From contig CAZMDA010000002.1 of NCBI GenBank assembly GCA_964564865.1, forward strand, positions 33,375 through 97,374: 64,000 nt of DNA. Reading direction: 5' to 3'. This document shows, in pieces, positions 12,018 to 53,165 of this stretch. The DNA comes from an uncultured Bordetella sp. GTDB lineage: Bacteria > Pseudomonadota > Gammaproteobacteria > Burkholderiales > SG8-39. Numbering within the stretch: the first letter of the stretch is position 1; every line of letters starts with the position of its first letter. Under the pieces are notes generated by a model that did no database searches, was not told the DNA's origin, and saw only the letters and a program-made list of their open reading frames with translations. A program made the translations under genes and the position numbers.

Positions 12018-12037
12018 ATGTAACCGATCGGTTACAT
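12018..12037. repeat. 20-bp perfect palindrome ATGTAACCGATCGGTTACAT (copy 1)
   Basis: Read directly from the sequence. It starts 9 nt after the cupin gene stop. It is identical to the copies at 13311 and 27364. Confidence 0.95.
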
Positions 12038-12064
12038 CGGGGGCCGGCGGGCGCCCTGGTTGCT

Positions 12065-12106
12065 TTACTCAGGATATTGAGTAAAAATACTCAGTATATT
12101 GAGTAA
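12065..12106 (+). promoter_or_regulatory. AT-rich tandem operator-like element: two inverted repeats TACTCA-N6-TGAGTA spaced 21 bp apart
   Basis: The sequence is TTACTCAGGATATTGAGTAA (12065-12084) followed by TACTCAGTATATTGAGTA (12088-12105). The TTG start of the ATPase gene (12099) lies inside the second repeat. Confidence 0.5.
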
Positions 12107-13301
12107 ATCGTCAAATCCGTACCAACGCCCCCAGGCCGCCCGGCTCGTGCGCCGCCTTGCCGGCCCGCGCCGGTTCCTCCAGGTCATCACCGGCCCGCGC
12201 CAGGTCGGCAAGACCACGCTCGTCCAGCAGGTGACCGAGGCGCTCCGTGTCCCCGTGCGCTACGCCAGCGCCGACGAGCCCATGCTGCGCGGCGCGGACT
12301 GGATCCGCCAGCAGTGGGAGGCGGCGAGGCTGGAAGCCGGCAAGGCGGGCGCCGTGCTGGTGCTGGACGAGATTCAGAAGATTCCCCAGTGGTCCGAGAC
12401 GGTTAAACGGCTGTGGGACGAGGATTCGCGCGCGAAGCGGCCGGTGAAGGCAGTACTGCTGGGCTCGGCGCCGCTGCTGGTCGCGCAGGGCCTGACCGAG
12501 AGCCTGGCGGGGCGCTTCGAGGCGCTGCACCTTCCACATTGGTCCTTCGCCGAGATGCGCGAGGCCTTCGGCTGGTCGGTGGAGGACTACCTCTACTTCG
12601 GCGGCTACCCGGGCGCGGCGCCTCTGATGGCGGAGCCGGAGCGCTGGGCGCGCTATGTCTCCGACAGCCTGATCGAAACCTCGATTTCTCGCGACGTGCT
12701 GCTGCTTACCCGGGTGGACAAGCCGGCGCTGCTGCGCCGGCTGTTCGAGCTGGCCTGCCGCTACTCGGGGCAGGTGCTGTCGTACAACAAGATGCTCGGG
12801 CAGCTTCAGGACGCCGGCAACACCACCACGCTTGCCCACTATCTGGACTTGCTGGCTGGCGCCGGGATGGTCTGCGGCCTGCCCAAGTACGCGGGTGATG
12901 AGGCGCGGAGCCGTGGGTCCAGTCCCAAGCTGCAGGTGCTGAATACGGCGCTGATGACCGCGACCGCGGGTTTGTCGCCTGCTGAAGCTCGGGCAGATCG
13001 GGAGTTCCGGGGGAGGCTGGCGGAGTCTGCGGTTGGGGCGCATCTGGCGAATGCGGCGGCGTCGGGGGCCTGCCGGGTGTGGTACTGGCGGGAACGCAAT
13101 CGGGAGGTGGACTTCATCGTCCAGGCGGGGAGACGGCTGGTGTCGATCGAGGTCAAGAGTGGGCGTGTTCCGGGCGCGCACGCCGGGAGCGCGGCGTTCG
13201 CGGCGCAGTTCAAGGTGCACCGCAGTCTGCTGGTGGGTGGGGACGGGATCGGGCTGGAGGCGTTTCTCGTGCGGCCAGTGGAGCACTGGGTGGGTGCTTG
13301 A
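12099..13301 (+). CDS. AAA+ ATPase with C-terminal DUF4143-like domain (COG1373-type)
   Basis: 400-aa ORF with a TTG start inside the AT-rich tandem repeat. Walker A GPRQVGKTTL, Walker B VLVLDEIQ. C-terminal region ..WRERNREVDFIV..IEVKSG.. is typical of the DUF4143 nuclease-like fold. Confidence 0.85.
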   Translation: MSKSSNPYQRPQAARLVRRLAGPRRFLQVITGPRQVGKTTLVQQVTEALRVPVRYASADEPMLRGADWIRQQWEAARLEAGKAGAVLVLDEIQKIPQWSETVKRLWDEDSRAKRPVKAVLLGSAPLLVAQGLTESLAGRFEALHLPHWSFAEMREAFGWSVEDYLYFGGYPGAAPLMAEPERWARYVSDSLIETSISRDVLLLTRVDKPALLRRLFELACRYSGQVLSYNKMLGQLQDAGNTTTLAHYLDLLAGAGMVCGLPKYAGDEARSRGSSPKLQVLNTALMTATAGLSPAEARADREFRGRLAESAVGAHLANAAASGACRVWYWRERNREVDFIVQAGRRLVSIEVKSGRVPGAHAGSAAFAAQFKVHRSLLVGGDGIGLEAFLVRPVEHWVGA

Positions 13302-13310
13302 GCGGGTGAA

Positions 13311-13330
13311 ATGTAACCGATCGGTTACAT
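13311..13330. repeat. 20-bp perfect palindrome ATGTAACCGATCGGTTACAT (copy 2)
   Basis: Read directly from the sequence. It lies between the stop of the AAA+ ATPase gene (13301) and the convergent fbp stop (13343). Confidence 0.95.
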
Positions 13331-13342
13331 CTGGCGCGCCGC

Positions 13343-14344
13343 TCAGGGGTGGTAGGACGCGACCTTCTCGACCTCGTTCTTCGACCCCAGCACCACCGCG
13401 ATCCGCTGGTGCAGCCCCTTGGGCTGGAGGTCCAGGATCCGGGCCTTGCCCTCGGTCGCCGCGCCGCCCGCCTGCTCGACGATGAACGCCATCGGGTTGG
13501 CCTCGTACATCAGGCGCAGGCGCCCGTCCTTGTTCTTCGCATCCCGCGGGTACATGAAGATGCCGCCGCGCGAGAGCACGCGGAACACGTCCGCCACCAT
13601 CGAGGCCACCCAGCGCATGTTGAAGTCGCGCCCGCGCGGCCCGTCCTTGCCGGCGAGGCACTCGTCGATGTAGCGCTTCACCGGCGCCTCCCAGCGGCGC
13701 ATGTTGGAGGCGTTGATGGCGAACTCCGAGGTTTCCTCGGGGATGCGGATGTCCGGGTGGGTGAGGGCGAAGCTGAAGGTCTCGCGGTCCAGGGTGAAGC
13801 CGTGGGTGCCGTCGCCCACCGTCACCACCAGCACCGTGGTCGGGCCGTAGACGGCGAAGCCGGCCGCGACCTGCCGGTTGCCCGGCTGCAGGAAGGCCTG
13901 CTCGTCGGGCTCGCAGGGCTTGCCGTCGGCGCCGTGCGGGCAGCGCAGCACCGAGAAGATGGTGCCCACCGAGATGTTGACGTCGATGTTGGAGGAGCCG
14001 TCCAGCGGATCGAACAGGAGCAGGTACTCGCCGCGCGGGTAGTGGGTGGGGATCGGGCTGGGGGTCTCCATTTCCTCCGAGGCGAGCGCCGCCAGGTTGC
14101 CGCCCCACTCGTTGGCCTCGAGCAGGATCTCGTTCGACAGCACGTCCAGCGCCTTCTGCGTCTCGCCCTGCACGTTCTCCACGCCGAGCGAGGCGCCGCC
14201 GCCGCCCAGGGTGCCCTTGTTCACCCGCACGCTGATGGCCTTGCAGGCGCGGGCGATGGTTTCGATGAGCAGGCGCAGGTCGGCGTTGATGCGGCCGGCG
14301 CGCTCGCGCTCGATGAGGAACTGCGTCAGTGTGGTGCGTCGCAT
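13343..14344 (-). CDS. fbp: class 1 fructose-1,6-bisphosphatase
   Basis: 333-aa ORF with Fbp blocks: [64 protein letters not shown]. Confidence 0.92.
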
Positions 14345-14370
14345 GGCCGGATTCTAGCGCCGGGCGGCGA

Positions 14371-15513
14371 TCAGGCCGGGCGGATGCGCCGGCGCGCGAG
14401 CCAGCTGCCCGCCAGCAGCGCCGCGGCCATGGTCCAGAGCACCGGCCCCATGCCGAGGGCCGCGCCCACCGCGCCGAAGCCCAGCGGCATGACGGTCGAG
14501 CTGGCGTTGATCATGGTGGTGCGCACGCCCACCACCTCGCCCTGGCGCCCGGGCGGCGAGGCGGCGTAGAGCGCGGCCATGATCATGGGCTGCGCGCAGC
14601 CCAGCCCCAGGCCCAGCAGGAAGGAGGCCGCCATCAGCAGCGGCGCGGCCTTGGCCAGGGGAAACAGCGCATAGGCAAGGCCGGCGACCAGCAGGGCCGC
14701 GCAGATCACGCTCCACTCGGTGAGGCGGCGCGCGACGACGGGCATCACCAGGCGCACGACGAAGGTCGCCAGCGCGAAGCTGCTCATGACGATGCCGATG
14801 GTGGAGGCCGACAGGCCGATGCTGTTGCCGTAGACCGGGATGACGAAGGTGTACAGGTCCCAGCCGGAGGCGAGCAGGGCGCTGAACAGGTACACCGGCA
14901 GCAGGCGCGGGTTGCGCAGCAGGTCGGCCAGGCGGTGCTGCGCCGTGTCGGCGCGCGGCGCTTGCGTCGCGGGCAGCAGGCTGCGCCGCCACAGCAGCAG
15001 CCCGGTGCCGATCGCCGGGGGCAGCGCGAGCAGCAGGAACGCGGCGCGCTCGCCGGCGTAGTCCAGCGCGAAGCCGGCCAGCAGCGGGCCCAGGGTGCCG
15101 CTGATGGCATAGCCCAGCGCGAACCAGCTGAAGTTCACCGGCCGCTGCGAGGCGTCGCCCAGCGAGCCGATGACGTGGTTGAGCGCGATGTGCTGCAGCA
15201 TGAAGGCGGTGCCCACCACCACGGCGGCGACGAACAGCGCCGGCAGCCCGTGCCAGGCGAAGGGCAGCAGCGTGCCGGCGGCGACCACGGCGCCCCCGAT
15301 CGCGATCGGCCGGAAGGCGCCGACGCGGTCCACCAGGCGCCCGGCATAGACCGCCAGCAGCATCGGCACCACGGCATAGAGCGACATCAGCGCGCCGACG
15401 GTGAACGGCGTGGCGCCGTGGCCGAGGGCGGAGAGCGAGACGCTGATCCGCCCGCCGACGAAGCCGGCGTGGCTCAGCGCCGTCAGCAGGACGAAAAAGG
15501 CGAGCTGTCTCAC
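14371..15513 (-). CDS. MFS transporter
   Basis: 380-aa ORF that is hydrophobic throughout with about 12 predicted helices. Contains the MFS loop motif GRLVDRVG. Confidence 0.8.
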   Translation of the reverse strand: MRQLAFFVLLTALSHAGFVGGRISVSLSALGHGATPFTVGALMSLYAVVPMLLAVYAGRLVDRVGAFRPIAIGGAVVAAGTLLPFAWHGLPALFVAAVVVGTAFMLQHIALNHVIGSLGDASQRPVNFSWFALGYAISGTLGPLLAGFALDYAGERAAFLLLALPPAIGTGLLLWRRSLLPATQAPRADTAQHRLADLLRNPRLLPVYLFSALLASGWDLYTFVIPVYGNSIGLSASTIGIVMSSFALATFVVRLVMPVVARRLTEWSVICAALLVAGLAYALFPLAKAAPLLMAASFLLGLGLGCAQPMIMAALYAASPPGRQGEVVGVRTTMINASSTVMPLGFGAVGAALGMGPVLWTMAAALLAGSWLARRRIRPA

Positions 15514-15544
15514 GACAGCTCGCCTTCAGGGGACCGGCGTGGAC

Positions 15545-16435
15545 TCAGACTTGCCCGGGGACGCGGGCCTGGCGCGACTGCAGGGCCGCGATGCGCTCCT
15601 CGATCGGCGGGTGCGAGGCCAGCAGCGCCATCATGTCTCCGGCGTTGCTGATGCCCAGCGCCTGCATGGTCTGGGGCAGCGCGCCTGCCTGCAGCCCGCC
15701 CAGGCGCCGCAGCGCCGAGACCATCGGGCGCGGGCTGCCCAGGTAGTCCGCGGCGCCGGCGTCGGCGCGGAATTCGCGCTGGCGCGAGAACCAGGCCACG
15801 ATCATCGAGGCCAGCAGGCCCAGCACGATCTGCGCCACGATCATGGTGGCGTAGTATCCGATGCCCAGGCCGCGGTCGTTCTTCAGGATCACGCGGTCGA
15901 CGATGTAGCCGATGACACGCGAGAGGAAGAAGACGAAGGTGTTGACCACGCCCTGGATCAGCGTCAGCGTCACCATGTCGCCGTTGGCGACGTGCGCCAC
16001 CTCGTGGCCCAGCACCGCCTCCACTTCCTCGCGGCTCATGGTCTGCACCAGGCCGGTGGACACCGCCACCAGCGAGTCGTTGCGGGAGAAGCCGGTGGCG
16101 AAGGCGTTGGGCTCGCCGTCGTAGACCGCGACCTCCGGCATGCCGATGCCGGCCTTCTGCGACAGCCGGCGCACGGTTTCGACCAGCCAGTACTCGGTGC
16201 TGCCCTCGCTGCCGTCGATGGTGCGCGCGCCGGTGGACCACTTGGCCATGGGCTTGGAGATCAGCAGCGAGATGAAGGCGCCGCCAAAGCCGAACAGCGC
16301 CGACAGCCCGAGCAGGGCGGCCAGGTTGAGCCCGTTCTCGGTCAGGATGCGATCCAGGCCCAGCACGCTGGCCGCGATGGACAGCACAACCATGATCGCG
16401 ATGTTGGTGGCGATCAGCAGGAACACCCGCTTCAT
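15545..16435 (-). CDS. htpX: membrane zinc metalloprotease HtpX
   Basis: 296-aa ORF with N-terminal TM helices, the HEVAH zinc motif ([13 protein letters not shown]) and a C-terminal SHPPIEERI block. Confidence 0.92.
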
Positions 16436-16521
16436 TGCATCTCCTTGAAAGTAGGCCGCTTGTCCAACTGCCGTCCAGCTGCTTCAGGCGGCGCGAATCA
16501 TACCTTAACCGGACGCCCGTT

Positions 16522-16548
16522 AGATGGGGGCTTGGCCTGCAAGTTCAA
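16522..16548 (-). promoter_or_regulatory. candidate sigma-32 (RpoH) promoter for htpX
   Basis: The minus strand reads TTGAA (16548..16544), a 14-nt spacer, then CCCCATCT (16529..16522). This is close to the heat-shock consensus CTTGAA-N13-15-CCCCATNT. It lies about 90 nt upstream of the htpX ATG and overlaps the GMC gene stop codon. Confidence 0.45.
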
Positions 16549-18116
16549 TCACCTGAGCGCAGGAACCCGGCGCCCCGCTCGGCGATGACGTAGGTGGGGG
16601 CGTTCGTGTTCCCGGACGTGATCCGGGGCATCACCGAGGCGTCCATGACCCGCAGCCCGGCCACCCCCCGCACCCGCAGGCGGTCGTCCACCACCGCGTC
16701 GGCGTCGTTTCCCACGTTCCCCATCCGGCAGGTGCCCACCGGATGGAAGATGGTGGTGCCCAGCTCCCCGGCGGCGCGCGCCAGGTCCTCGTCCGACTGG
16801 ATCGCCGGCCCGGGGCGGAACTCCTCCGGCTGGCACTTCACCAGCGCCTTCGCCGCCATGATGCGGCGGGTGAAGCGCATCCCGTCCACCGCCACCTGGC
16901 GGTCCTCCGGCGTGGAGAGGTAATTCAGCCGCACCTCCGGGTAGGCGGCCGGGTCCGGGGACTTGATCCGGACATGGCCGCGGGAGGTCGGCCGCAGGTT
17001 GCACACGCTGGGCGTGATGGCCGGGAACGGGTGCAGGGGATCGCCGAACTTGTCCAGCGACAGCGGCTGCACATGCCACTCGATGTTGGGCGTGGGCTGC
17101 GACGGATCGCTCTTCGCGAACGCGCCCGCCTGCGACGGCGGCATGGTGAGCGGGCCGGTACGGAACAGCAGGTACTCCAGGCCCATCTTCGCCTTGCCGA
17201 CGAGGCTGTTGGCCATCTCGTTCAAGGTGCGCACGTTCCAGACCTTGTACTGCATGCGGATCTGCAGGTGGTCGTGCAAATTTCCGCCCACGCCGGGCGA
17301 ATCGTGCACGACCGGTATGCCCAGCGATTGCAGATGCGCACCCGGCCCGATTCCCGACAACTGGAGAATCTGGGGTGACCCGATCGCGCCGGCGGCGAGC
17401 ACCACCTCCCGCTTCGCCGCCACGCAATGCTCGCCGCCGGCGCGAAACTCGACGCCGGTCGCGCGACCGCCTTCAATCCGGACCTTCGACACCAGCGCAC
17501 CGGTGATGACCTTCAGGTTGGGGCGATGCAAGGCCGGCCGCAGGAACGCATCCGCCGCGCTCCAGCGCCGCCCGCTCTTCTGGCTCATCTGGAAATAGGC
17601 GCAGCCGAAGTTGTCGCCGTGGTTGAATTCCCTGATCGGCGGGATGCCGCACTCGGCCGCGGCCTCGCGCCAGGCGTCGATGACGTCCCAGCGCACGCGC
17701 GGGTCCTCGATGTAGAGGTCCTGCTCCACGCGCCTGAACACCGGCAGCACTTCGTCCCAGGACCAGCCGCGGTTGCCCAGGCTCGCCCAATGATCCCAGT
17801 CCTCCTTCTGGCCGCGCATGTGGATCATGGCGTTGATGGAGGAGCACCCGCCCAGCACCTTGCCGCGGGCGTAGTGGATGGAGCGGCCCGCGAGGTGCTC
17901 GTCGGGCTCGGTCTTGTAGCACCAGTCGGTGCGCGGGTTGGCGATGGTGTACAGGTACCCGACCGGGACCTTGATCCAGAACCAGTCGTCCTGGCCGCCG
18001 GCTTCCAGCAGCAGCACCGTGGTATCCGGGTCGGCGGAGAGTCGATTGGCAAGCAGGCACCCGGCGCTGCCGGCGCCGACGATGACGTAGTCGTACTTAT
18101 CGGGTAGCACAGTCAC
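16545..18116 (-). CDS. GMC family oxidoreductase (choline dehydrogenase-like)
   Basis: 523-aa ORF. N-terminal FAD motif DYVIVGAGSAGCLLANRLS, GGCSSINAM, and C-terminal HPVGTCRMG. The GTG start overlaps the stop of the upstream RHH gene (GTGA). Confidence 0.9.
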   Translation of the reverse strand: MTVLPDKYDYVIVGAGSAGCLLANRLSADPDTTVLLLEAGGQDDWFWIKVPVGYLYTIANPRTDWCYKTEPDEHLAGRSIHYARGKVLGGCSSINAMIHMRGQKEDWDHWASLGNRGWSWDEVLPVFRRVEQDLYIEDPRVRWDVIDAWREAAAECGIPPIREFNHGDNFGCAYFQMSQKSGRRWSAADAFLRPALHRPNLKVITGALVSKVRIEGGRATGVEFRAGGEHCVAAKREVVLAAGAIGSPQILQLSGIGPGAHLQSLGIPVVHDSPGVGGNLHDHLQIRMQYKVWNVRTLNEMANSLVGKAKMGLEYLLFRTGPLTMPPSQAGAFAKSDPSQPTPNIEWHVQPLSLDKFGDPLHPFPAITPSVCNLRPTSRGHVRIKSPDPAAYPEVRLNYLSTPEDRQVAVDGMRFTRRIMAAKALVKCQPEEFRPGPAIQSDEDLARAAGELGTTIFHPVGTCRMGNVGNDADAVVDDRLRVRGVAGLRVMDASVMPRITSGNTNAPTYVIAERGAGFLRSGD

Positions 18117-18388
18117 TTCAATCCAATTGATTCTGTCTCTTTAGCGGTCCGGCAATCGGCGTTCGCGCTGGACGTGCGGGATGGAATCTCCAAATTCAAT
18201 CCGCCAAACGGTTGGAATCTCTTGCGAATCGCGTCACCAAGGCTCCTCGCCTTATAGTCGCGATCCGCAAGCGCGCATCCAATGATGGCGCTAGCTTCTT
18301 CTTGAACTGAGCGGTTGTGTACAGCGGCCTGCATGCGGAGGCGGGACAGGAGCGCCGAGTCAAGGTTGCGTATGGTCAATCTGCTCAT
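18113..18388 (-). CDS. ribbon-helix-helix (Arc/FitA/VapB-like) antitoxin-type DNA-binding protein, no cognate toxin present
   Basis: 91-aa ORF. The N-terminus MSRLTIRNLDSALLSRLRMQAAVHNRSVQEEASAII matches the FitA/VapB RHH pattern (TIRNLD..L..R..A...RS.E.E). It lies in a visibly lower-GC patch. Confidence 0.7.
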   Translation of the reverse strand: MSRLTIRNLDSALLSRLRMQAAVHNRSVQEEASAIIGCALADRDYKARSLGDAIRKRFQPFGGLNLEIPSRTSSANADCRTAKETESIGLK

Positions 18389-18480
18389 CTACCGGCCTCA
18401 GATTCGGTCAGTTGGTATTGTATTAAAGCTGGGTCCAACGTGCGGTGATTGCGATGAGCAACATGCTCTAAACTCGTCGT

Positions 18481-19305
18481 ATGCGCATCGGGGTTGATTT
18501 GGGAGGAACGAAGATTGAGCTGCTCGCGCTGGATGTCGCGGGCCGGGAATCCTTCCGCAAGCGCATCCCGACTCCGCAAGGCGACTACGCGGCGACCGTC
18601 GATGCCATCGCGGCGCTGGTTTGGGAAGCGCAGTCGGCGCTGGGCGAGGTCGCCACGGTCGGCATTTGCACACCCGGTGCGCTGTCGTCAGTGACCGGTC
18701 GCATCAAGAACGCGAACTCGACCTGCCTCAACGGCCAGCCGCTGAAGGAAGACCTCGAGTCCGTGCTGGGCCAGCAGGTCCGCCTCGCCAACGACGCCAA
18801 CTGCTTCGCCCTGTCCGAAGCCGTGGACGGGGCCGGGCAGGGCGCCCGGGTGGTGTTCGGCGTCATCCTGGGCACCGGTGTGGGCGGCGGGATCGTGGTG
18901 GACGGCATGGTCCTCACCGGCCCCAACGCCATCGCCGGCGAATGGGGCCACAACCCGTTGCCCGGCCCGCGTAAGGAAGACCTGCCCCTGCGCGACTGCT
19001 ACTGCGGCAGGCAGGGTTGCATCGAAACCTACCTGTCCGGTCCGGCCCTGCAGGCCGATCCGGACATGGACCGGTACGAGGCGCGCCTTGCCCGGTCGCT
19101 CGCCGGCGTGATCAATGTCCTCGATCCGGACGTCATCGTCCTGGGCGGGGGAATATCGGGCATCAGGCGGCTGTATGCGAACGTACCGGCGCTGTGGACG
19201 GCGCACGTGTTCTCGGACCGGGTGGCGACGCGCTTGCTGCCGCCGGTGCACGGGGACGCGAGCGGGGTGCGCGGGGCGGCGTGGTTGTGGGGAGCGCAGG
19301 AATAA
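18481..19305 (+). CDS. ROK family sugar kinase (fructokinase/N-acetylglucosamine kinase-like)
   Basis: 274-aa ORF with MRIGVDLGGTK, NANSTCLNG, LANDANCFALSE, GTGVGGG, the zinc motif EWGHNP..CYCGRQGCIETY, and HGDASGVRGAAWLW. Confidence 0.85.
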   Translation: MRIGVDLGGTKIELLALDVAGRESFRKRIPTPQGDYAATVDAIAALVWEAQSALGEVATVGICTPGALSSVTGRIKNANSTCLNGQPLKEDLESVLGQQVRLANDANCFALSEAVDGAGQGARVVFGVILGTGVGGGIVVDGMVLTGPNAIAGEWGHNPLPGPRKEDLPLRDCYCGRQGCIETYLSGPALQADPDMDRYEARLARSLAGVINVLDPDVIVLGGGISGIRRLYANVPALWTAHVFSDRVATRLLPPVHGDASGVRGAAWLWGAQE

Positions 19306-19321
19306 AAAGGGGGAGGGAAGG

Positions 19322-20107
19322 ATGAAAGCGTACAAGGCAATCGTGATCTCGATCGGCGCGCTGGCCTTTGGCACGGCGAGCGCTGGCCCGGAGAAGATCA
19401 AGTTCCCGTCGGACTACCTGAAGGGCACGCTGTACGCCACGGTGGACCGGCCCGACACCAAGCAGTACCGCGAGCTCTACGCCTCGCCCGGCGTGGTGGA
19501 GTCCGTGCGCGCCGGGAAAGGCGTGCCCTACGGCGCGGTGCTGACCCTCGTCCAATGGAGCGTGCACCAGGACGCCCAGGGCAACCCGATCAAGGACGGC
19601 AACGGCCGCTTCATCAAGAAGGACATCCTGGCGCACACCGTGATGCAGAAGGAGAAGGGCTGGGGCGCGGAATACCCGGACAGCCTGCGCAACGGCGAGT
19701 GGGAGTACTCGGTGTTCAACCGCCAGGGAGACTTCAATCCCAAGGCCAACTTCAAGGCCTGCTTCGAGTGCCACAAGCCGCACGCCAGCATGGACTACGT
19801 GACCTCGCTGGCGAAGCTGGCGGGGAAGTTCCCGGACGCGAGCGCCGTGGCGAAGGCGCCCAAGGGCGACGTCAGCATCGTCGGCTTCCTGTTCAACCCG
19901 GCGAAGATCGTGGCGGCCGTGGGCAAGCCCCTCAGGTTCCTCAACACCGACGATTCGCCGCACTTCATCGTGGTGCAGGGCTCGGGGCAGAAGTCCGAGG
20001 TGATCCTGCGCGGCCAGTCCACCACCATGACCTTCGACAAGGCGGGTGCCTTCAACTACATCTGCGGGCTGCACCCGTCGATGAAGGGCACCATCGAAGT
20101 CAAATAG
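19322..20107 (+). CDS. secreted fusion protein: cytochrome P460-like heme domain plus cupredoxin (type-1 copper) domain
   Basis: ATG 19322 follows GGGAGGGAAGG. Signal peptide MKAYKAIVISIGALAFGTASA. The P460-family region ends in the heme motif CFECH. The C-terminal domain has the cupredoxin pattern ..FNP..I..VGKPLRFLNTDDSPH.. and YICGLHPSMKGTIEV (His, Cys, His, Met ligand pattern). Confidence 0.75.
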   Translation: MKAYKAIVISIGALAFGTASAGPEKIKFPSDYLKGTLYATVDRPDTKQYRELYASPGVVESVRAGKGVPYGAVLTLVQWSVHQDAQGNPIKDGNGRFIKKDILAHTVMQKEKGWGAEYPDSLRNGEWEYSVFNRQGDFNPKANFKACFECHKPHASMDYVTSLAKLAGKFPDASAVAKAPKGDVSIVGFLFNPAKIVAAVGKPLRFLNTDDSPHFIVVQGSGQKSEVILRGQSTTMTFDKAGAFNYICGLHPSMKGTIEVK

Positions 20108-25398: not shown

Positions 25399-25419
25399 GC
25401 GGCTATGATAGCGGCTCGC

Positions 25420-27096: not shown

Positions 27097-27363
27097 ATGA
27101 CCCCTGCCCAACGCCTCGTCAACCTGATCACCCCCGACCGCAGCCGCTGGCTGCCGATGCTCGGGTGCCTCGCCATCGCCGGCGCCTGCATCCAGGCGGT
27201 GCTGTTCCTCAAGCCCGCCGAGCCGCTGCTCTCGATCCTCGTGATCGGCGCGCTGATGAGCTGGTTCATCGGCGCGCTGGCCGCGATCGGCTATACGCGC
27301 TGGTTCTTCGGCAGGGAGTTCGCCCGTGGCAAGCAGGAGAGCGGAGACGTGAAGCGGGAGTGA
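27097..27363 (+). CDS. small membrane protein (88 aa, two predicted TM helices)
   Basis: ORF starts 20 nt after the oxidoreductase gene. Hydrophobic stretches LPMLGCLAIAGACIQAVLFL and LLSILVIGALMSWFIGALAAIGY. Third codon positions are GC-rich. Confidence 0.55.
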   Translation: MTPAQRLVNLITPDRSRWLPMLGCLAIAGACIQAVLFLKPAEPLLSILVIGALMSWFIGALAAIGYTRWFFGREFARGKQESGDVKRE

Positions 27364-27383
27364 ATGTAACCGATCGGTTACAT
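27364..27383. repeat. 20-bp perfect palindrome ATGTAACCGATCGGTTACAT (copy 3)
   Basis: Read directly from the sequence. It begins immediately after the TGA at 27361-27363 and ends 12 nt before the convergent kinase stop at 27395. Confidence 0.95.
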
Positions 27384-27394: not shown

Positions 27395-28443
<1,049 letters not shown>

Positions 28444-28447
<4 letters not shown>

Positions 28448-36365: not shown

Positions 36366-41830
<5,465 letters not shown>

Positions 41831-43684: not shown

Positions 43685-43712
43685 CGCAGGCCGCTTCCAC
43701 TTCGAAACAACG

Positions 43713-43751
43713 CCGCCGCCCGCGGTAGCCTGACGGGCGGCGGTTTTTTTT
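43713..43751 (+). terminator. intrinsic terminator/attenuator hairpin between the binding-protein gene and livH
   Basis: Stem CCGCCGCCCG (43713-43722) pairs with CGGGCGGCGG (43734-43743) around an 11-nt loop. An eight-T run (43744-43751) follows and ends 1 nt before the livH ATG. Confidence 0.7.
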
Positions 43752-43752
43752 C

Positions 43753-44616: not shown

Positions 44617-45611
44617 TGGCCGCGCCGCAGACCGCCGCCGCGCAGCTCGCGCGCCGCCACCGCTTCCAGTGGTGGGAGCTGCTGCCGTGGATCGCCGCCA
44701 TCGCCGCGTTCTACGCCTTCCCGACCTACCTCGCCTTCGGCACGCAGCTCCTGATCACCATCCTGTTCGCGCTGTCGCTGGACCTGGTGCTGGGCTACGC
44801 CGGCATCGTCACCCTCGGCCATGCCGCCTTCTTCGGCGCGGGCGCCTATACGGTCGGCATGCTTGCCTCGCAACTGGGCTGGAACGAACCCTTGTCCGGC
44901 CTTCTCGCCGCGGCGGCGGTGGCCGGGCTGATCGGCCTGGTGAGCGGGCTGGTGCTGCTGCGCACGCACGGCCTGACGCTGCTGATGCTGACGCTGTGCA
45001 CCATGGCGCTGCTGGAGCAGGCGGCGAACATGGGCGCGCACTGGACCGGGGGGTTCGACGGCATTCCGGGCCTGAGCTTCGGCAAGATCTTCGGCCTGTT
45101 CTCCTTCGACGTGCTCTACTTCCGCTCGCAGTACCTCTATGTGCTCGCGGTGCTGCTGATCTGCTTCGTGGTGGTGCGCACCCTGGTGTATTCCTCCTTC
45201 GGCCAGAGCCTGACCGGGGTGCGCGAGAACCTGCTGCGCATGCACGCGGTCGGCGCGCCGGTGCGCGCGCGCCTGGTGCTCGCCTACACCATCTCGGCGG
45301 CGCTGGCCGGCATCGCGGGCGGCCTGTTCACGCAGGCCACCGGCTACGTCAACCTCTCGGCCCTGAGCCTGGAGCGGGCCGCCGGGGTGATGATCATCCT
45401 GATCCTGGGCGGCTACGGGCGCCTGTACGGCGCCTTCGTCGGCGCGGTGGCCTACATGGTCCTGGAGCACATGCTCGCCAAGGCCTACCCGACGGCGTGG
45501 CAGCTGGGCATCGGCGTGACCCTGATCCTGGTCGCGCTGTACGCGCGCAACGGCATCATCGGCATCGGCGAATCCCTGGTGCGGCGCCTGCGCGGCGGAG
45601 GCGCGGCATGA
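44616..45611 (+). CDS. livM: branched-chain amino acid ABC transporter permease (LivM-like)
   Basis: 331 aa from ATG 44616, sharing one base with the livH stop (TGATG). Contains the block GYAGIVTLGHAAFFGAGAY. Confidence 0.88.
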   Translation: MAAPQTAAAQLARRHRFQWWELLPWIAAIAAFYAFPTYLAFGTQLLITILFALSLDLVLGYAGIVTLGHAAFFGAGAYTVGMLASQLGWNEPLSGLLAAAAVAGLIGLVSGLVLLRTHGLTLLMLTLCTMALLEQAANMGAHWTGGFDGIPGLSFGKIFGLFSFDVLYFRSQYLYVLAVLLICFVVVRTLVYSSFGQSLTGVRENLLRMHAVGAPVRARLVLAYTISAALAGIAGGLFTQATGYVNLSALSLERAAGVMIILILGGYGRLYGAFVGAVAYMVLEHMLAKAYPTAWQLGIGVTLILVALYARNGIIGIGESLVRRLRGGGAA

Positions 45612-46363
45612 GCACGGCGCGGCTCGAGACGAAGGGGCTGAGCAAGAACTTCGGCGCGCTGGAGGTGGCGCGCGAGGTGAACTTCCGGCTCGATGCCGGC
45701 GCGCGGCACGCGCTCATCGGCCCCAACGGCGCAGGCAAGACCACGTTCATCAACCTGCTCACCGGGGCGCTGGCGCCCTCGCGCGGCAGCGTGCTGCTGG
45801 AAGGCGAGGACGTCACCGGCCTGGCGCAGGCGACGCGCGTCAAGCGCGGCATCGCGCGCACCTTCCAGATCAACCAGCTGTTCCGCGGCCTGACGGTGCT
45901 CGAGAACGTGTGCATCTCGGTGTCCGAGCGCATGGGCCAGGGCGGGGGCATGGTGCGCGCCGCCGGGCGGCGCGCCGGAGTGCTGGACGAGGCCATGCGC
46001 CTGATCGGGATGCTGAAGCTGGAGGAGGACGCCGGCCGGCGCATCGTGGAGCTGCCCTACGGCCGGCAGCGCCTGGTGGAGATCGCCATCGCGCTGGGCC
46101 TGCAGCCGCGCGTGCTGCTGCTCGACGAGCCGGCCGCGGGCATCCCGAGCGCGGAGACGCACATCCTGCTGGATGCCATCGCGACGCTGCCGCGCGACAT
46201 CGCCGTGCTCATCATCGAGCACGACATGGACCTGGTGTTCCGCTTCGCCGAGCGCATCACGGTGCTGGTGAGCGGGGCGATCTTCGCCGAGGGCACGCCG
46301 CAGGAGATCGCCGCCAACCGCGACGTGCGCGCGGTGTACCTGGGGAGCGCGCTGGATGCCTGA
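45608..46363 (+). CDS. livG: ABC transporter ATP-binding protein (LivG-like)
   Basis: 251 aa from ATG 45608 (ATGA overlap). Walker A GPNGAGKTT, Walker B LLLDEPAAG, and the C-terminal AVYLG motif. Confidence 0.88.
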   Translation: MSTARLETKGLSKNFGALEVAREVNFRLDAGARHALIGPNGAGKTTFINLLTGALAPSRGSVLLEGEDVTGLAQATRVKRGIARTFQINQLFRGLTVLENVCISVSERMGQGGGMVRAAGRRAGVLDEAMRLIGMLKLEEDAGRRIVELPYGRQRLVEIAIALGLQPRVLLLDEPAAGIPSAETHILLDAIATLPRDIAVLIIEHDMDLVFRFAERITVLVSGAIFAEGTPQEIAANRDVRAVYLGSALDA

Positions 46364-47057
46364 AGCGCTTGCGTTGCAGGGCGTCGGCGCCGGCTACGGC
46401 GAGACGCACGTGCTGGAGGACATCAACCTGGCCTTGGGGCAGGGCGAGAGCCTGTCGGTGATCGGGCGCAACGGCGTGGGCAAGTCCACGCTGCTGGAGA
46501 CGATCATGGGCCACACCACGATGCACGCGGGTTCGATCGCCCTCAACGGGGGCGACGTGTCCGCCTTTCCGCCCCACCGGCGCGCGCTCGCCGGCCTGGG
46601 CTACGTGCCGCAGGAACGCGAGATCTTTCCCTCGCTCACCGTGCTGGAGAACCTGGAACTGGGCGCGCGCCCCGGGCCCTGGACGCTGGCGCGGGTGTTC
46701 GAGCTGTTCCCCAACCTGAAGGAGCGCCTCGCCAACGCCGGCACCCAGCTCTCCGGCGGCGAGCAGCAGATGCTGGCGGTGGCGCGCGCGCTGCTCACCA
46801 ACCCCTCCGTGCTGCTGATGGACGAGCCCACCGAGGGCCTGGCGCCGGTGATCGTGCAGGCGCTCACGCAGGTGCTGCTCAAGCTGCGCGGCGAGGGCGG
46901 CTTCGCCATCGTCCTGGTGGAGCAGAACAGCCGCGTGGCGCTGGAGTTCTCCGAGCGCACCGTGGTGATGGACCGCGGCCGGATCGTGTACGACGGCGCC
47001 TCCGAGCGCCTGCGCCGCGACCCCGACTACCTCGCCAGCCTGATCGCGGCGCAGTAG
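46356..47057 (+). CDS. livF: ABC transporter ATP-binding protein (LivF-like)
   Basis: 233-aa ORF with Walker A GRNGVGKST, signature LSGGEQQM and Walker B LLMDEPTEGL. It overlaps the livG 3' end by 8 nt. Confidence 0.88.
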   Translation: MPEALALQGVGAGYGETHVLEDINLALGQGESLSVIGRNGVGKSTLLETIMGHTTMHAGSIALNGGDVSAFPPHRRALAGLGYVPQEREIFPSLTVLENLELGARPGPWTLARVFELFPNLKERLANAGTQLSGGEQQMLAVARALLTNPSVLLMDEPTEGLAPVIVQALTQVLLKLRGEGGFAIVLVEQNSRVALEFSERTVVMDRGRIVYDGASERLRRDPDYLASLIAAQ

Positions 47058-47074
47058 GCCGCGGGCCCCGCTAG

Positions 47075-48599
<1,525 letters not shown>

Positions 48600-48603
<4 letters not shown>

Positions 48604-49652
48604 GGCACGATCTTCTCGGCCCGGAACCGGCTCAGCAGCCGCACGAACATCTCCTCCGAGTCCACCACGGCGTGGAAGCCGTGCAGGCGCGACTTGGTGA
48701 CGCTGGACATCACGTCCCAGTTGCAGCCGAACACGTAGTCGCCGAACGGCCAGGCCACCACCTCGTCGAAGCGGAACGGCTGCAGGCCGTGCTTCGCCAC
48801 CAGCGCATCCCACAGCGCGCCCTGGCCGCCCATGGTCTTCACCAGCGACATCGGCTCGGGATCGCCCGCCGGCATGTCGAACACCTCCGCCAGGCGCGGC
48901 CACAGCCGGCTCCAGCGGAAGTAGTCGCCGTTGGTGATGTTGTAGGCCTGGTTGGCGCAGCGCGGCTCGGTCGCCGCCCAGTAGGCGGACTCGGCGAAAT
49001 GCGCCGAATCGGTCACCTGGTAGATCGTGTTCCACGCGGTGCCCGGGAACGAGAACGGCAGCCCCTGGGCCTTGCGCAGGGCGGCGTAGACCGCGATCAC
49101 GGGCACGATGCTCATCGCGGTCCCCGGGGCGAAGCCGCACAGGGTCTGCGGGCGCAGCTCGGTCCAGCTCCAGCGCTTGCCGCGCTGGAACGCGGTCAGC
49201 CAGTCGATCTGGTCGAAGTAGAAGTTCGGGCCGGCATGGCGCGGGTCGGTTTCCCGCGCCGGGGTGGGGTAAGGTCCGAGGTGCGTCCCGTAGTACTTGG
49301 TCCCGGTCACCAGCACCACCCGCTGCAGGCCGGGCGCGACGGCCTCCACGGCCGAGACCGCGTTCACCAGCATGTCCCGGTTGGGGTCGATGTTGGCAGC
49401 GTACCCGGCGGCGGCGCCCGCCGAAGGCTGGAACGCGGCGTAGAAGAGGTGGGTCGCATCCCGCAGTTCCGCGAGTTTCGCCGCCGCTCCCGGACGATCG
49501 AGCAGGTCCACCGCGATATGGCGCACGTTGCCCGCGTCCACGCCCCGCCGGCGCGACAGCCCGACCACCTGCCAGTCCGGCAGCCCGGCCAGCCGCTCGA
49601 CGATGTAGCGGCCGATGACGCCCTGCGCGCCGACGACGACGGCTGTGTTCAT
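48600..49652 (-). CDS. SDR family NAD-dependent oxidoreductase (PRISE/progesterone 5-beta-reductase-like)
   Basis: 350-aa ORF. N-terminal Rossmann motif VVVGAQGVIGRYIVERL, and VLVTGTKYYG. Confidence 0.8.
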
Positions 49653-49751
49653 TTCGCCACGCCGCAGCGCATCTGAAACCTTTTTGCGACTCGCGCGTTG
49701 TCCATGTCATCCCCGTGTAAGAAACTGCGGGAAGGATACGAGGAAACACCC

Positions 49752-49904
49752 ATGGACTTCATCCGCCGCCTGTTCCGCCCCTTCGAGCGCCGCCGCTGGG
49801 CGCGCGTGCGCGCGGGCTATGGGGTGGAAGTCCTGTTCGCCGGCTGGGTCGACCTGCCCAAGCCCCTGAAGGAGCGCAAGGCGCATAAAATCCCCGGCAA
49901 ATGA
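49752..49904 (+). CDS. possible small basic protein (50 aa) translationally coupled to the downstream peptidase gene
   Basis: ATG 49752 lies 7 nt after GAGGAA. The stop overlaps the ATG of the M20 gene (ATGA at 49901-49904). No recognisable family, so it could instead be a regulatory leader ORF or spurious. Confidence 0.35.
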   Translation: MDFIRRLFRPFERRRWARVRAGYGVEVLFAGWVDLPKPLKERKAHKIPGK

Positions 49905-51295
49905 GCCGGGACCGGGCGATCGCCCGCGCAGAGCGCTACTTCGACGACGGCCGGTTCCTCGAGGACCTGGCCCGGCGCGTCGCCATCCCCACCGAGAGCC
50001 AGAACCCGGACCGCGGCGCGGAGCTCGGGCGCTACCTCTCCGAGGAAATGTCCGAGTCGCTGGAGCGCCTCGGCTTCCAGTGCCGCATCTACCCCAATCC
50101 CGACGGCAAGCACGGCCCCTTCCTCATCGCCGAGCGGATCGAAGCGGCTGATCTGCCGACGGTTTTCACCTACGCCCACGGCGACGTGATCCGCGGCCAG
50201 GAAGGGTCCTGGCGCGCCGGCATCGAACCCTGGAAGACCGTGGTGGAGGGCGAGCGCATCTATGGCCGCGGCACCGCCGACAACAAGGGCCAGCACACCA
50301 TCAACATCGGCGCCATGGCCGCTGTGCTGGCCGAGCGCGGGAAACTGGGCTTCAACGTCAAGTTCCTGGTCGAGACCGGGGAGGAAATGGGCTCGCCCGG
50401 CCTGCGCGAGTTCTGCAGCCAGCATCGGGACGAGCTGAAGGCGGACGTGCTCATCGCCTCCGACGGCCCCCGGGTTTCGCCCGGCCGCCCGACCCTGTTC
50501 CTCGGTTCCCGCGGCGCGCTCAACATGGACCTCGTCGTGGACCTGCGCGAGGGCGGCCATCACTCCGGCAACTGGGGCGGGCTGCTCGCCAATCCCGGGA
50601 TCATCCTCGCCCAGGCGCTCGCGACCATCACCGGCCCGAAAGGCGAGATCCGGGTGCCCGAGTGGCGGCCCGATACCCTGACGGCCCGAGTCAAGGAAGT
50701 GCTGGCGGACATCGAGGTGGACGGCGGGGAGGATGCGCCCGCCATCGATACCGGCTGGGGCGAACCGGGCCTCACGCCTTCCGAGCGCGTGTTCGGCTGG
50801 CCCAGCTTCGAGGTGCTCGCCTTCACCTGCGGCAACCCGGACCGGCCGGTGAACGCCATCCCGCCGCGGGCGAGCTGCCATTGCCAGCTGCGCACGGTGG
50901 TGGGCATCGATTCGGCGGACGTGGTGCCGGCGCTGCAGCGGCACCTGGACAGGCACGGGTTCCCGATGGTCAAGGTGTCGCGGGCGCGGGCGGAGTTGAT
51001 GCACCCGACGCGGCTGGACCCGGACCATCCCTGGGTGAGGTGGGCCGCCGGTTCGCTGGAGAAGACGTCCGGGAAGAAGGCGGCGATCCTGCCCAATCTC
51101 GGCGGCTCGTTGCCGAATGACATTTTCGCTGACCTCCTTGGCCTGCCGACGGTGTGGGTGCCGCATTCCTACGCGTCGTGCAGCCAGCATGCGCCGAACG
51201 AGCACCTGCTCGCGCCGGTGGCGCGCGATGCGCTCCGGCTGATGGCGGGGGTGTGGTGGGACCTGGGCGAGAAGGCGGCGGTACCGCGGGGCTAG
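49901..51295 (+). CDS. M20 family metallopeptidase (dipeptidase/ArgE-DapE-like)
   Basis: 464-aa ORF with HGDV, RGTADNKG, ETGEEMGS and late VPHSYASCSQHAPNEH. Confidence 0.85.
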   Translation: MSRDRAIARAERYFDDGRFLEDLARRVAIPTESQNPDRGAELGRYLSEEMSESLERLGFQCRIYPNPDGKHGPFLIAERIEAADLPTVFTYAHGDVIRGQEGSWRAGIEPWKTVVEGERIYGRGTADNKGQHTINIGAMAAVLAERGKLGFNVKFLVETGEEMGSPGLREFCSQHRDELKADVLIASDGPRVSPGRPTLFLGSRGALNMDLVVDLREGGHHSGNWGGLLANPGIILAQALATITGPKGEIRVPEWRPDTLTARVKEVLADIEVDGGEDAPAIDTGWGEPGLTPSERVFGWPSFEVLAFTCGNPDRPVNAIPPRASCHCQLRTVVGIDSADVVPALQRHLDRHGFPMVKVSRARAELMHPTRLDPDHPWVRWAAGSLEKTSGKKAAILPNLGGSLPNDIFADLLGLPTVWVPHSYASCSQHAPNEHLLAPVARDALRLMAGVWWDLGEKAAVPRG

Positions 51296-51320
51296 GGCAA
51301 ATGTGCACGGTCGTGCACAT
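51277..51320. repeat. 44-nt repeat ending in palindrome ATGTGCACGGTCGTGCACAT (variant family, copy 4)
   Basis: 41 of 44 bases match 53122-53165. The 5' part of the repeat encodes the last codons and the TAG of the M20 peptidase gene. Confidence 0.9.
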
Positions 51321-51412
51321 CGGGTGGCGGTCGTCCATGCAGGTTCGCGCGAGGCGGCGGGCGAGGCGTCGGCCAGCGGTTAGACTGACGTGACCAACCG
51401 AGGAGATTCCCG

Positions 51413-52384
51413 ATGATGAAGCTAGTCAAGCTGCTGGCGATGGCAGCGTCGCTCGGCATTGCCGCCTCGCCGGCATATGCGCAGACCTATCCTGCGAACG
51501 TGGTGAAGATCATCGTGCCCCAGGCGCCAGGGGGTGCCACGGACGTGTTCGCGCGCTACCTGGGCCAGAAGCTGGGCGATCGCTGGGGGCAATCGGTCGT
51601 CATCGAGAACCGCGCGGGCGCGGCCGGCATCGTCGGCACGGATGCGGTGGCCAAGGCGGCGCCGGACGGCTACACGCTGCTGTTCACCTATGAGGGCTCC
51701 CAGGCGATCAACCAGAGCCTGTACAGCCGGGTGCCGTACGACGGCGTCAAGGATTTCGCCACCATCGCCACCGCCGCGACCACGCCGTTCTTCCTCGTCG
51801 TCGGCGGCCAGTCGCCGATCAAGGACTTCCCCGACCTGATCGCGCGGGCGAAGGCGAAGCCGGGCGGCGTCACCTACGCCACCTCCGGCAGCGGGTCCAT
51901 CAACCACCTGCTCTCGGAGTCGCTTAAGGCCGAGGCCGGCATCGACATGCTGCACGTGCCCTACAAGGGGATCGCCGGCGCCCTGGCCGACGTCATGGGC
52001 GGCACGGTGGACAACGCCTTCGCCTCCGTGCCCTCGGCGATCGGGATGATCCGGGGCGGAAAGCTGCGGGCGATCGCGGTCTCGAGCGCGAAGCGCGTCG
52101 CCGCGATGCCGGATGTCCCGAGCATCGCGGAGCGCGGCTACCCGAAGTTCAACATCAATCCGTGGTGGGGCCTGCTCGGGCCCGCCGGCATGCCGAAGGC
52201 GATCGTGGACAAGATCAATGCCGACGTGGCGCAGATCCTGCGCACCCCGGATGCGGAGGCGTTCTTCGCCAAGACCGGCGCGGAAGTGCTGCTCTCCAGC
52301 CCGGAGGCCTTCCAGAAGATGCTCGAGGCGGACGTCGCGCGCTGGGCGAGGGTGGTCAAGGCATCGGGGGCCAAGGTCGACTGA
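51413..52384 (+). CDS. Bug family tripartite tricarboxylate transporter substrate-binding protein
   Basis: 323-aa ORF. Signal peptide, then VKIIVPQAPGGATD, VENRAGAAG and HVPYKG. Confidence 0.88.
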   Translation: MMKLVKLLAMAASLGIAASPAYAQTYPANVVKIIVPQAPGGATDVFARYLGQKLGDRWGQSVVIENRAGAAGIVGTDAVAKAAPDGYTLLFTYEGSQAINQSLYSRVPYDGVKDFATIATAATTPFFLVVGGQSPIKDFPDLIARAKAKPGGVTYATSGSGSINHLLSESLKAEAGIDMLHVPYKGIAGALADVMGGTVDNAFASVPSAIGMIRGGKLRAIAVSSAKRVAAMPDVPSIAERGYPKFNINPWWGLLGPAGMPKAIVDKINADVAQILRTPDAEAFFAKTGAEVLLSSPEAFQKMLEADVARWARVVKASGAKVD

Positions 52385-53100
52385 TGCCCAGGTCCACGGT
52401 CTACCTGCACGTCGATCGAGTAGATGCCGGGGTGGTGGCCGCCGCGCGCGCGGCCAGCGTGTCCGACCTGCATGAGGCGATGGGCGGCGCCGCGGGCAAG
52501 CAGGCCACCATGGCACCCGGCATGCGCCCGCTGCTGCCTGGCATGCGCATCGCCGGCCCCGCGGTCACGGCGTGGTGCTCCGCGGGCGACAACCTCATGA
52601 TGCACCGGGCCCTGTCGCTCGCGCGGCCGGGGGACGTGCTGGTCGTGCAGGCGACCGATGGCGGCGCCCAGTGGGGCGACATCGCGGCCTACTACGCCAG
52701 GAAGCTCGGCCTTGCGGGGATCGTGGTGGACGGGTTCATCCGCGACATCGACGAGCTCGTGGCCATGCAGTCGCCCGTGTGGTCGACGCGGATCGGGCCG
52801 AGCAGCCCGCAGAAGACCGGCCATGGGACGGTCAACGCGCCGATCGTTTGCGCCGGCGTGCGCGTCGAGCCCGGCGACCTCGTGGTGGCCGACGGCGACG
52901 GCGTCATCGTGGTGCCGAAGGCGGTCGCGGCGTCCATCGTGGAAACGGCGCGGCAGCGGATGGCGCGCGAGCAGGGGCAACGCGCGCAGATCGACGCCGG
53001 CGGGCTGCCCTGGGTGCTGCACGGCGGGGCGGACAACTACACCCGGATCGACGTCGAGGAGATCGACGCGCCGTGGTCGCCCGCCGGCCGGCAGCCCTGA
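52384..53100 (+). CDS. RraA family protein (4-hydroxy-4-methyl-2-oxoglutarate aldolase/RNase E regulator-like)
   Basis: 238 aa from ATG 52384, sharing one base with the upstream stop. Contains DNLMMHRAL..ARPGDVLVV, GIVVDGFIRD and GDLVVADGDGVIVVP. Confidence 0.8.
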   Translation: MPRSTVYLHVDRVDAGVVAAARAASVSDLHEAMGGAAGKQATMAPGMRPLLPGMRIAGPAVTAWCSAGDNLMMHRALSLARPGDVLVVQATDGGAQWGDIAAYYARKLGLAGIVVDGFIRDIDELVAMQSPVWSTRIGPSSPQKTGHGTVNAPIVCAGVRVEPGDLVVADGDGVIVVPKAVAASIVETARQRMAREQGQRAQIDAGGLPWVLHGGADNYTRIDVEEIDAPWSPAGRQP

Positions 53101-53121
53101 TCGAACGGCGACCGTGCCCCG

Positions 53122-53165
53122 GGCGGTACTGCGGGGCTGGGGCAAATGTGCACGATCGTGCACAT
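53122..53165. repeat. 44-nt repeat ending in perfect palindrome ATGTGCACGATCGTGCACAT (variant family, copy 5)
   Basis: Read directly from the sequence. It starts 22 nt after the RraA-like gene stop. The palindrome is followed by TTTT. Confidence 0.9.

Follow-up and report, generated by a model that had tools for sequence, protein, structure and literature searches.

The palindrome described here, ATGT-N3-CGATCG-N3-ACAT, occurs five times in a window of 64,000 nt, C2:33375-97374, of G000, the draft metagenome-assembled genome of a member of an uncultured Burkholderiales genus (3.69 Mb, 144 contigs, 69.6% G+C; C-numbers refer to the contigs of G000). It is probably a double-stranded site read by a dimeric protein, namely the operator of a HipB-like helix-turn-helix (HTH) protein, which has been multiplied in one clade and is kept while the protein is present. 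The initial annotation of the window had taken the palindromes mainly for hairpins of the repetitive extragenic palindromic (REP) type and had listed a palindromic operator for a dimeric regulator as a minor alternative. The latter is now favoured, the site being the conserved upstream element of a co-occurring XRE-type HTH family.

All five 20-mers of the window were found where the initial annotation had placed them. The architecture it gave, ATGT-N4-CGATCG-N4-ACAT, is 22 nt long and has no match, even when one mismatch is allowed; the corrected form, with N3 on each side, is equivalent to ATGT-N4-GATC-N4-ACAT and totals 20 nt. At up to two mismatches this pattern was found six times in the window (0.14 expected from shuffles), the matches being the five family members and an unrelated two-mismatch match at 8350. 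A search of the whole of G000 gave 122 exact matches, and 135 copies within three mismatches of the half-site combinations, which corresponds to about one copy per 27 kb; the reversed-pattern control gave no match in this genome. As the initial annotation had proposed, the family is numerous, lineage-specific and linked to gene ends.

Three half-sites, A (ATGTAACCGA), B (ATGTGCACGA) and C (ATGTTACCGA), make up most copies in G000, while a fourth, D (ATGTGTACGA), is commoner in the relatives. The combinations in G000 are 68 AA', 17 BB', 16 CC', 12 BC', 2 BA' and 1 AC'. In the five window copies every change in one arm is mirrored in the other, as the initial annotation had stated, but the rule is not general, since 15 copies in G000 (the 12 BC', 2 BA' and 1 AC') are chimeras. 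The half-sites occur almost exclusively in abutted pairs: of 149 A half-sites, about 141 are in full copies and an estimated 8 are solitary. The copies are always single units, the closest pair being 638 nt apart. Beyond positions -3 to -1, the flanks have in common only a general G-rich composition on the left and C-rich composition on the right, which probably reflects that of the coding strand. A variant, ATGTAATCGATCGGTTACAT (C7 to T, or G14 to A on the other strand), is present at many sites in the congener G021, once each in G000 and in the congener G012, and in a similar form at one site in the congener G002; it may be a mutational hot spot, such as a methylated cytosine, or a further dialect.

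With gene boundaries taken from our own codon-model calls on the draft genome, 89% of the approximately 135 copies lie within 25 nt of a stop codon, at a median distance of 8 nt. Copies are found in 59 of 448 convergent gaps (2.15 copies per kb of gap), 42 of 2603 tandem gaps (0.26 per kb) and 5 of 451 divergent gaps (0.075 per kb), so that divergent promoter gaps hold just 5 of the 130 copies with at most one mismatch. In 22 copies the stop codon of the gene lies inside the element, where A-type copies supply TAA.

The candidate readers were sought among genes with a start within 120 nt of a copy in G000. Two paralogous HTH genes encoding proteins of about 100 amino acids, 66% identical to each other, were identified outside the window (C72:13066-13368 and C82:4641-4949). 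They match the Pfam family HTH_31 at 32.9 and 28.4 bits (cut-off 27), and the nearest NCBIfam model, that of the Y4mF/HipB antitoxin subfamily (TIGR03070), matches at 56.5 bits, below its cut-off of 71.65. The predicted fold consists of five helices behind a disordered, proline-rich N-terminus; the nearest structures to the model are HipB (4pu7, TMt 0.84), C.AhdI (1y7y) and ClgR, with DdrO among the weaker matches. HipB and C.AhdI each bind operators as dimers. No HipA toxin, restriction or modification gene was found next to either HTH gene of G000.

All five genomic HTH loci, two each in G000 and G012 and one in the congener G043, have the palindrome 22-24 nt upstream of the ATG, the distance in G000 being 22-23 nt. 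The upstream copy of paralogue 1 is AA' in two species, and that of paralogue 2 is D-C' in the same orientation in three. The family is small, with 43 homologues in a large protein collection, and six metagenomic homologues (63-91% identity) have an ATGT-N3-CGATCG-N3-ACAT site 14-23 nt upstream of the ATG, the N3 differing between sites (ATGTCACCGATCGGTTACAT, ATGTCATCGATCGTTGACAT, ATGTGCACGATCGATTACAT and ATGTTCCCGATCGGGAACAT). The site is therefore present 14-24 nt upstream of the gene at every locus examined, five genomic and six metagenomic. A CATAAT-like hexamer, putatively the -10 box, overlaps the left edge of the site in loci of the paralogue 1 type. The 20-kb metagenome loci with HTH homologues have the operator copy only, which is uninformative at one copy per 27 kb. 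Paralogue 2 heads an operon (region C82:4225-7628) with YjbQ-family and nitroreductase-like genes and faces, across the palindrome, a UvrD-like helicase gene and a DUF188 gene; YjbQ and DUF188 genes also adjoin a distant HTH homologue on a metagenome contig (L188).

The distribution of the HTH family follows that of the palindrome. Exact copies number 122 in G000, 129 in G012 and 135 in G043, the three genomes to which full-length homologues were confined in a protein search of the congeners; a profile search of G002, G012, G021, G043 and a further congener, G041, agrees. There are 34 exact copies in G021, which is 56% complete, and 13 in G002, while 29 other congeners have 0-3 and no member of the HTH family. 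When the scan was widened to 401 genomes covering 167 genera of the order, in which the HTH family was not searched for, essentially no copies were found elsewhere. Six stray single matches, from two congeners, three other genera and G041, were checked and none adjoins an HTH gene; such matches are chance occurrences or remnants. A search of the literature for the motif strings returned one unrelated match.

Orthologous sites were located using 44 flank pairs with the element masked. In G012 a copy is present at 26-27 of the 29 alignable sites: 20 orthologous copies are identical to those of G000, four have one point change, one has B replaced by D, and two sites have another perfect dialect. 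Whole-dialect switches are seen at C7:60774 (CC' in G000, AA' in G012) and C5:87322 (CB' in G000, BB' in G012). Across the 27 orthologous sites the 20-mer is 96.5% identical (521/540), compared with 62% for the adjacent 20-nt flanks. The constraint acts on the sequence of the 20-mer, in which every position is conserved, and each half-site appears to be constrained individually.

A natural loss-of-gene comparison is provided by G002, the closest relative by flank identity (approximately 90% nucleotide identity; 96% complete), in which neither the protein nor the profile search found a member of the HTH family. Of paralogue 1, about 30 nt from the 3' end persist beside grxD, the sequence diverging afterwards; the gene was lost by deletion. 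The copies of G002 occupy the corresponding positions but have suffered point changes and small indels: 1 of 12 orthologous copies is a perfect member, whereas G012 has 23 of 27 (Fisher p = 8e-6). Roughly half of those damaged (loci L112-L131) are without the central GATC, through substitution or 1-3-nt indels at the dyad centre, which exceeds the centre's share of positions (4/20). That copies are intact in G000 and G012 and decayed in G002 implies that something maintains every position and is missing in G002. We infer that the HTH protein binds the dispersed copies and that this binding, or a drive dependent on it, would keep them intact.

The copies within genes reveal how at least part of the family arose. 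Twenty copies with at most one mismatch are inside gene calls, eight of them in sequence that is strongly coding and stays in one frame across the copy, where they encode the peptides MLPIGNI (four CC' copies), MCTIVHI (one BB') and [NH]V[TY]DRAH (three). The origin is readable in seven of the eight. Length is unchanged at these copies in the orthologues from G012, G043, G002 and the outgroup, G001, and G001 has native codons at all four that have an orthologue there; the intragenic copies therefore arose by point substitutions and not by transposition. In an MnmA-like gene, for example, G001 has atgtttccggtagggcacctg (MFPVGHL), both G000 and G043 have ATGTTACCGATCGGTAACATt (MLPIGNI) and G002, which lost the HTH gene, has atgttcccgattggtaacatt (MFPIGNI), while in an oxidoreductase-like gene (C3:8016) the sequence is aacgtgtacgaccgcggcgcg (NVYDRGA) in G001 and aATGTGTACGATCGTGCACAT (NVYDRAH) in G000. 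The change in the MnmA-like gene is partly non-synonymous, and the residue in G002 is back to F as in G001; going by E. coli MnmA, the changed residues presumably fall in a conserved FPxG motif. The MnmA-like gene (C26:14783-15853) and a GalU-like gene (C54:24105-24959), both outside the window, carry the in-frame palindrome coding MLPIGNI, and the retention of copies within them argues against a strong transcriptional roadblock. Synonymous sites within the 20-mer are fixed while neighbouring codons vary, and a TTA codon, presumably rare at 70% G+C, is retained. Intragenic copies were thus made by substitutions directed at the DNA sequence itself, to some extent to the detriment of the protein.

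The following scheme would account for these observations. The pair of XRE-family, HipB/Y4mF-like proteins is the candidate reader of the palindrome, and the upstream copy would be the HTH genes' own operator, probably autoregulatory. This operator would have been multiplied to 120-135 copies per genome in one clade of the genus, with intragenic copies being built by point substitutions on partly matching sequence. Copies would persist where the exact 20-bp motif does least harm: past stop codons and chiefly where two genes converge, seldom close to promoters and, within a small number of genes, in the two frames whose peptides are tolerable. The placement fits a filter on harm rather than a function at gene ends, promoters being avoided and gene ends and two coding frames tolerated.

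Within the window, the copies begin 8, 9, 0, 5 and 45 nt past a stop codon according to our gene calls, in agreement with the range of 0-46 nt reported initially, and two of them, at 13311 and 27364, do lie between convergent genes. A left flank ending in AA, previously ascribed to all, is present in four of the five, the flank at 27364 being the stop codon TGA. Only the copy at 53146 precedes a run of Ts, as had been noted, but the run is merely three Ts long. The genes beside the copies are ordinary (FBPase, Ser/Thr kinase, M20 peptidase, TctC-family, RraA-like and glucose/sorbosone dehydrogenase). Copy 1 (12018..12037, dialect AA', ATGTAACCGATCGGTTACAT) follows the gene 11440-12009 and is upstream of an AAA_14/DUF4143 gene; its orthologue is identical in G012 despite differing flanks and has decayed to ATGTAACCGCGGCTCTGTTACAT in G002. 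Copy 2 (13311..13330, also AA', ATGTAACCGATCGGTTACAT) follows the AAA_14/DUF4143 gene (12147-13301), with the FBPase gene (13343-14344, minus strand) converging on it and stopping 12 nt away. G043 has an exact copy, and G002 one with an inserted G, at an equal distance from the FBPase stop, the opposite gene being a different one. Copy 3 (27364..27383, AA', ATGTAACCGATCGGTTACAT) abuts the TGA that closes gene 27097-27363; on its other side 11 nt separate it from the stop of the Ser/Thr kinase gene, which is convergent (27395-28447, minus strand). The orthologous gene end in G012 also carries a copy. Copy 4 (51301..51320, BB' with the centre mutated to CGGTCG, ATGTGCACGGTCGTGCACAT) follows the M20 peptidase gene (49901-51295), and copy 5 (53146..53165, BB', ATGTGCACGATCGTGCACAT) the RraA-like gene (52384-53100).

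Copies 1 and 2 bracket the AAA_14/DUF4143 ATPase gene (12147..13301, plus strand; Pfam assignment). The protein is 70-83% identical to those encoded in many phyla, including Acidobacteriota, Chloroflexota, Planctomycetota and Gemmatimonadota, and the gene has a low codon score for G000 and is absent from most congeners, which points to an acquired gene with very recent and wide horizontal spread. It was rejected as a reader of the palindrome because G012 is without the gene yet keeps copy 1, and because homologues are found in congeners without the family. An A+T-rich double palindrome that looks operator-like is located just upstream of the gene (12064-12107; TTACTCAGGATATTGAGTAA, AAA and TACTCAGTATATTGAGTAA) and persists in G012 though the gene is gone.

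Copies 4 and 5 form a direct repeat together with a shared 24-nt left flank (51277..51300, plus strand), which is repeated with two mismatches at 53122-53145. They bracket a 1845-nt segment with the TctC-family and RraA-like genes (51295..53139, plus strand), and in contigs from a related strain (about 96-97% identical over the aligned pieces) this segment is absent and a single copy remains. Contigs of two runs, X6 (5243 nt) and X8, show the joint from 51294 to 53140, at which 15 letters match either side. The segment is a presence/absence polymorphism, being lacking in sediment metatranscriptome and soil metagenome contigs. As metagenome assemblies break at the palindrome, this joint is the sole informative strain-level empty site.

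Four other explanations of the family were weighed. That it forms an RNA hairpin, acting from either strand as a bidirectional terminator or 3'-end stabiliser, is hardly credible, although the short distance to stop codons and the 59 copies between convergent genes, which account for about 40% of convergent gaps of at least 30 nt, would suit such an element. A T/A run is found in 2% of copy-bearing gaps against 39% of comparable copy-free gaps, so the copies may have a termination-related role and could be substituting for ordinary terminators. The folds are weak, however, with symmetric copies reaching -8.5 to -10.6 kcal/mol (8-bp stems) and chimeras -1.2 to -2.3, and a T-run (four or more Ts within 25 nt on either side) was found in 0 of 101 copies. 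Compensatory changes had been proposed as the sign of selection on a hairpin, but G000 has 15 chimeric copies, and chimeras that do not fold are kept from one species to another: G000 and G012 have the same BC' copy at C5:14899, and G000, G012 and G043 share an identical D-C' copy ahead of HTH paralogue 2. Pairing in a hairpin is thus not the selected feature. A stem would also tolerate compensated changes, whereas every position is conserved here, and neither the conserved copies inside essential-type genes nor those upstream of the HTH genes, a senseless place for a terminator, are in keeping with it. An extension of the stem into the flanks specific to each copy was considered and rejected, true flank pairs giving -15.1 kcal/mol and permuted ones -15.6. 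The REP-like reading preferred initially fails on the same weak or absent folds and missing T-runs, and further on the repeats at the RAYT gene and on the intragenic copies without insertion. In its mobile form, in which a transposase encoded elsewhere or since lost spread the 20-mer as a single-stranded hairpin of REP or miniature inverted-repeat transposable element type and the copy at the HTH promoter is a fixed insertion, it is distinctly unlikely. The copies are indeed numerous, lineage-specific, mostly extragenic and past stop codons, gaps with a copy are about 40 nt longer, and G000 does have a RAYT-type Y1 gene. The search for this putative mobiliser gave a sole PF01797 match (C11:55947-56282, in the RAYT-like gene call C11:55917-56636), but the gene is flanked by CAGGGACAGTCCACGTTTTCC and its reverse complement, members of a different family (consensus aaatCAGGGACGGACCACGATTTCC; about 60 copies in G000, often as inverted pairs). 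Two inverted copies of that repeat are also found inside a large UvrA-like gene of the window (36659-36726; C2:70033-70100). The palindromes themselves are loop-less and perfect, begin with ATGT in place of a GTAG or CGTC head and do not form clusters of the bacterial interspersed mosaic element (BIME) type, and eight are inside genes. The sharing of nearly all alignable sites with G012 gives little sign of recent movement, and the operator position is kept in HTH homologues at 63-68% identity.

It is unlikely, too, that the 20-mer is an uptake-sequence-like motif multiplied by molecular drive (preferential uptake and recombination), the copy upstream of the HTH genes being a separate use. This explanation draws on the in-place origin of intragenic copies by substitution in frames with tolerable peptides, their concentration at gene ends, the lineage-specific dialects with whole-dialect switches, and the decay in one lineage. 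DNA uptake sequences (DUS) and uptake signal sequences (USS) are found about once per kb, against one copy per 27 kb here, and single DUS copies are common, whereas the unit here is an abutted 20-bp pair with few solitary half-sites. The motif serves, moreover, a cytoplasmic HTH family as its conserved operator, and homologues on further metagenome contigs have it as well; the group has no known uptake receptor or competence phenotype, though neither competence genes nor receptors were searched for. DUS dialects with a cognate receptor are documented (PMC3630211, PMC3868556). A recombination site, with the palindrome as the core for a tyrosine recombinase (7-6-7 around CGATCG) or a serine recombinase (9-AT-9), cassettes moving between copies and central crossing-over making the chimeras, is very unlikely. 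It would explain why segments bracketed by copies of the same dialect are missing in relatives with one copy left, as for the 1845-nt segment and in G002, where single decayed copies stand in place of pairs that bracket 6.7 kb (C10:31274/38002) and 1.36 kb (C8:6675/8038) in G000. Copies 1 and 2 bracket an acquired gene, and both BA' copies of the genome are neighbours, as are two CB' copies. These neighbouring chimeras are identical and not reciprocal, however, and close pairs are not enriched: cassette-like clustering had no statistical support, with 10 pairs under 3 kb against 11.7 expected from random placement in gene-end gaps, and pairs under 7 kb look somewhat depleted (17 against 24.9). 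In three neighbouring pairs the copies have 22-24 nt of flank in common, which fits homologous recombination or duplication better than site-specific exchange, the in-place intragenic copies are left unexplained, and no co-distributed recombinase turned up, although no systematic search was made. We take the copies for repeats at which deletions or duplications are favoured; they do not prove a cassette system.

Several observations weigh against the operator reading. The link between protein and site rests on position and co-occurrence, and since the three amplified, HTH-bearing genomes are one clade, the distribution amounts to one gain and one loss and not to 32 independent observations. 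No HTH gene was found in G021 despite its 34 exact copies, and because that genome is little more than half complete it counts neither for nor against the link. The copies are also subject to recombination, as indicated by the shared flanks and the segments missing in relatives. Symmetric copies exceed random assortment of half-sites (12 BC' against 22.5 expected in the B/C group, p = 0.002); some pressure or history favours symmetry, and the excess may reflect the history of the copies. The in-place origin was read from intragenic copies; convergent gaps have a median of 46 nt with a copy and 4 nt without, so that some intergenic copies may be added DNA. Finally, 130 occupied sites of an autoregulated repressor would be without a known function.

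As to that function, our guess is chromosome-wide binding of the SlmA/Noc/MatP kind or self-marking rather than transcription termination. A bolder proposal, which we regard as possible but doubtful, is that the orphan HipB-like protein and its roughly 130 own operators are an undescribed chromosome-wide system, a self-mark or a nucleoid-organising scaffold, whose demand for sites rewrites conserved protein motifs (the FPxG motif of the MnmA-like protein, and the GalU-like gene), and that loss of the protein lets the sites decay and the MnmA-like motif drift toward the outgroup residue. Short dispersed palindromes at gene ends are usually filed as REP elements or terminators; the family described here differs and has a named candidate reader, and the substitutions that built its intragenic copies came at an evident cost to conserved proteins. 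If the HTH protein binds the copies, an autoregulatory operator has expanded into a genome-wide set of sites, which would offer a tractable model for the creation and upkeep of binding-site families, for conflict between selection at the DNA and protein levels and for the role of orphan HipB-like regulators. Symmetric variants of a palindrome should also not be taken for RNA-style covariation.

Like the operators of XRE dimers (HipB, the C-boxes of C.AhdI and C.Esp1396I, and ClgR sites), the palindrome is a dyad just upstream of the gene for a small five-helix HTH protein. Known operators of this kind occur once or a few times per genome, at promoters, whereas there are approximately 130 copies here, nearly all at gene ends or inside genes, and unlike HipB and the C proteins the HTH proteins of G000 have no toxin or restriction/modification partner beside them. 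DdrO of Deinococcus is an XRE-family repressor that recognises a 17-bp palindrome, the RDRM, at the promoters of a stress regulon of a few dozen genes. A conserved palindrome at many loci, with an XRE-family protein, is common to both systems, but the RDRM is a promoter site, and the copies described here are scarce in divergent promoter gaps. REP elements are imperfect palindromes with a GTAG or CGTC head and a loop, and inverted copies of them border the RAYT gene. REP and BIME families resemble this one in being short palindromic repeats past stop codons, in 10^2-10^3 copies, specific to a species or clade and with rearrangements between copies; they differ from its perfect, loop-less and headless single units, base-perfect conservation between species, modular half-sites and in-place intragenic origin.

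The nucleoid-protein systems SlmA-SBS, Noc-NBS, MatP-matS and ParB-parS have a dimeric reader and palindromes of 12-16 bp at tens to about a hundred scattered sites that evolve in place. The family shares with them a dimeric, here candidate, reader, many palindromic sites across the chromosome and evolution in place, and differs in its XRE/HipB-like reader, its 20-bp site and its strong gene-end bias; the chromosomal distribution is unreadable from draft assemblies. The DUS of the Neisseriaceae, with the receptor ComP (PMC3630211, PMC3868556), and the USS of the Pasteurellaceae are likewise exact short motifs in many copies that arise in place by point mutation, including in coding frames, lie at gene ends and have clade dialects. 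The density here is about thirty-fold lower, the unit is an abutted inverted pair and the candidate reader is a cytoplasmic HTH protein with the motif as its own operator. By analogy, the dynamics of the family resemble those of uptake sequences (PMC3630211) or of nucleoid-protein site sets.

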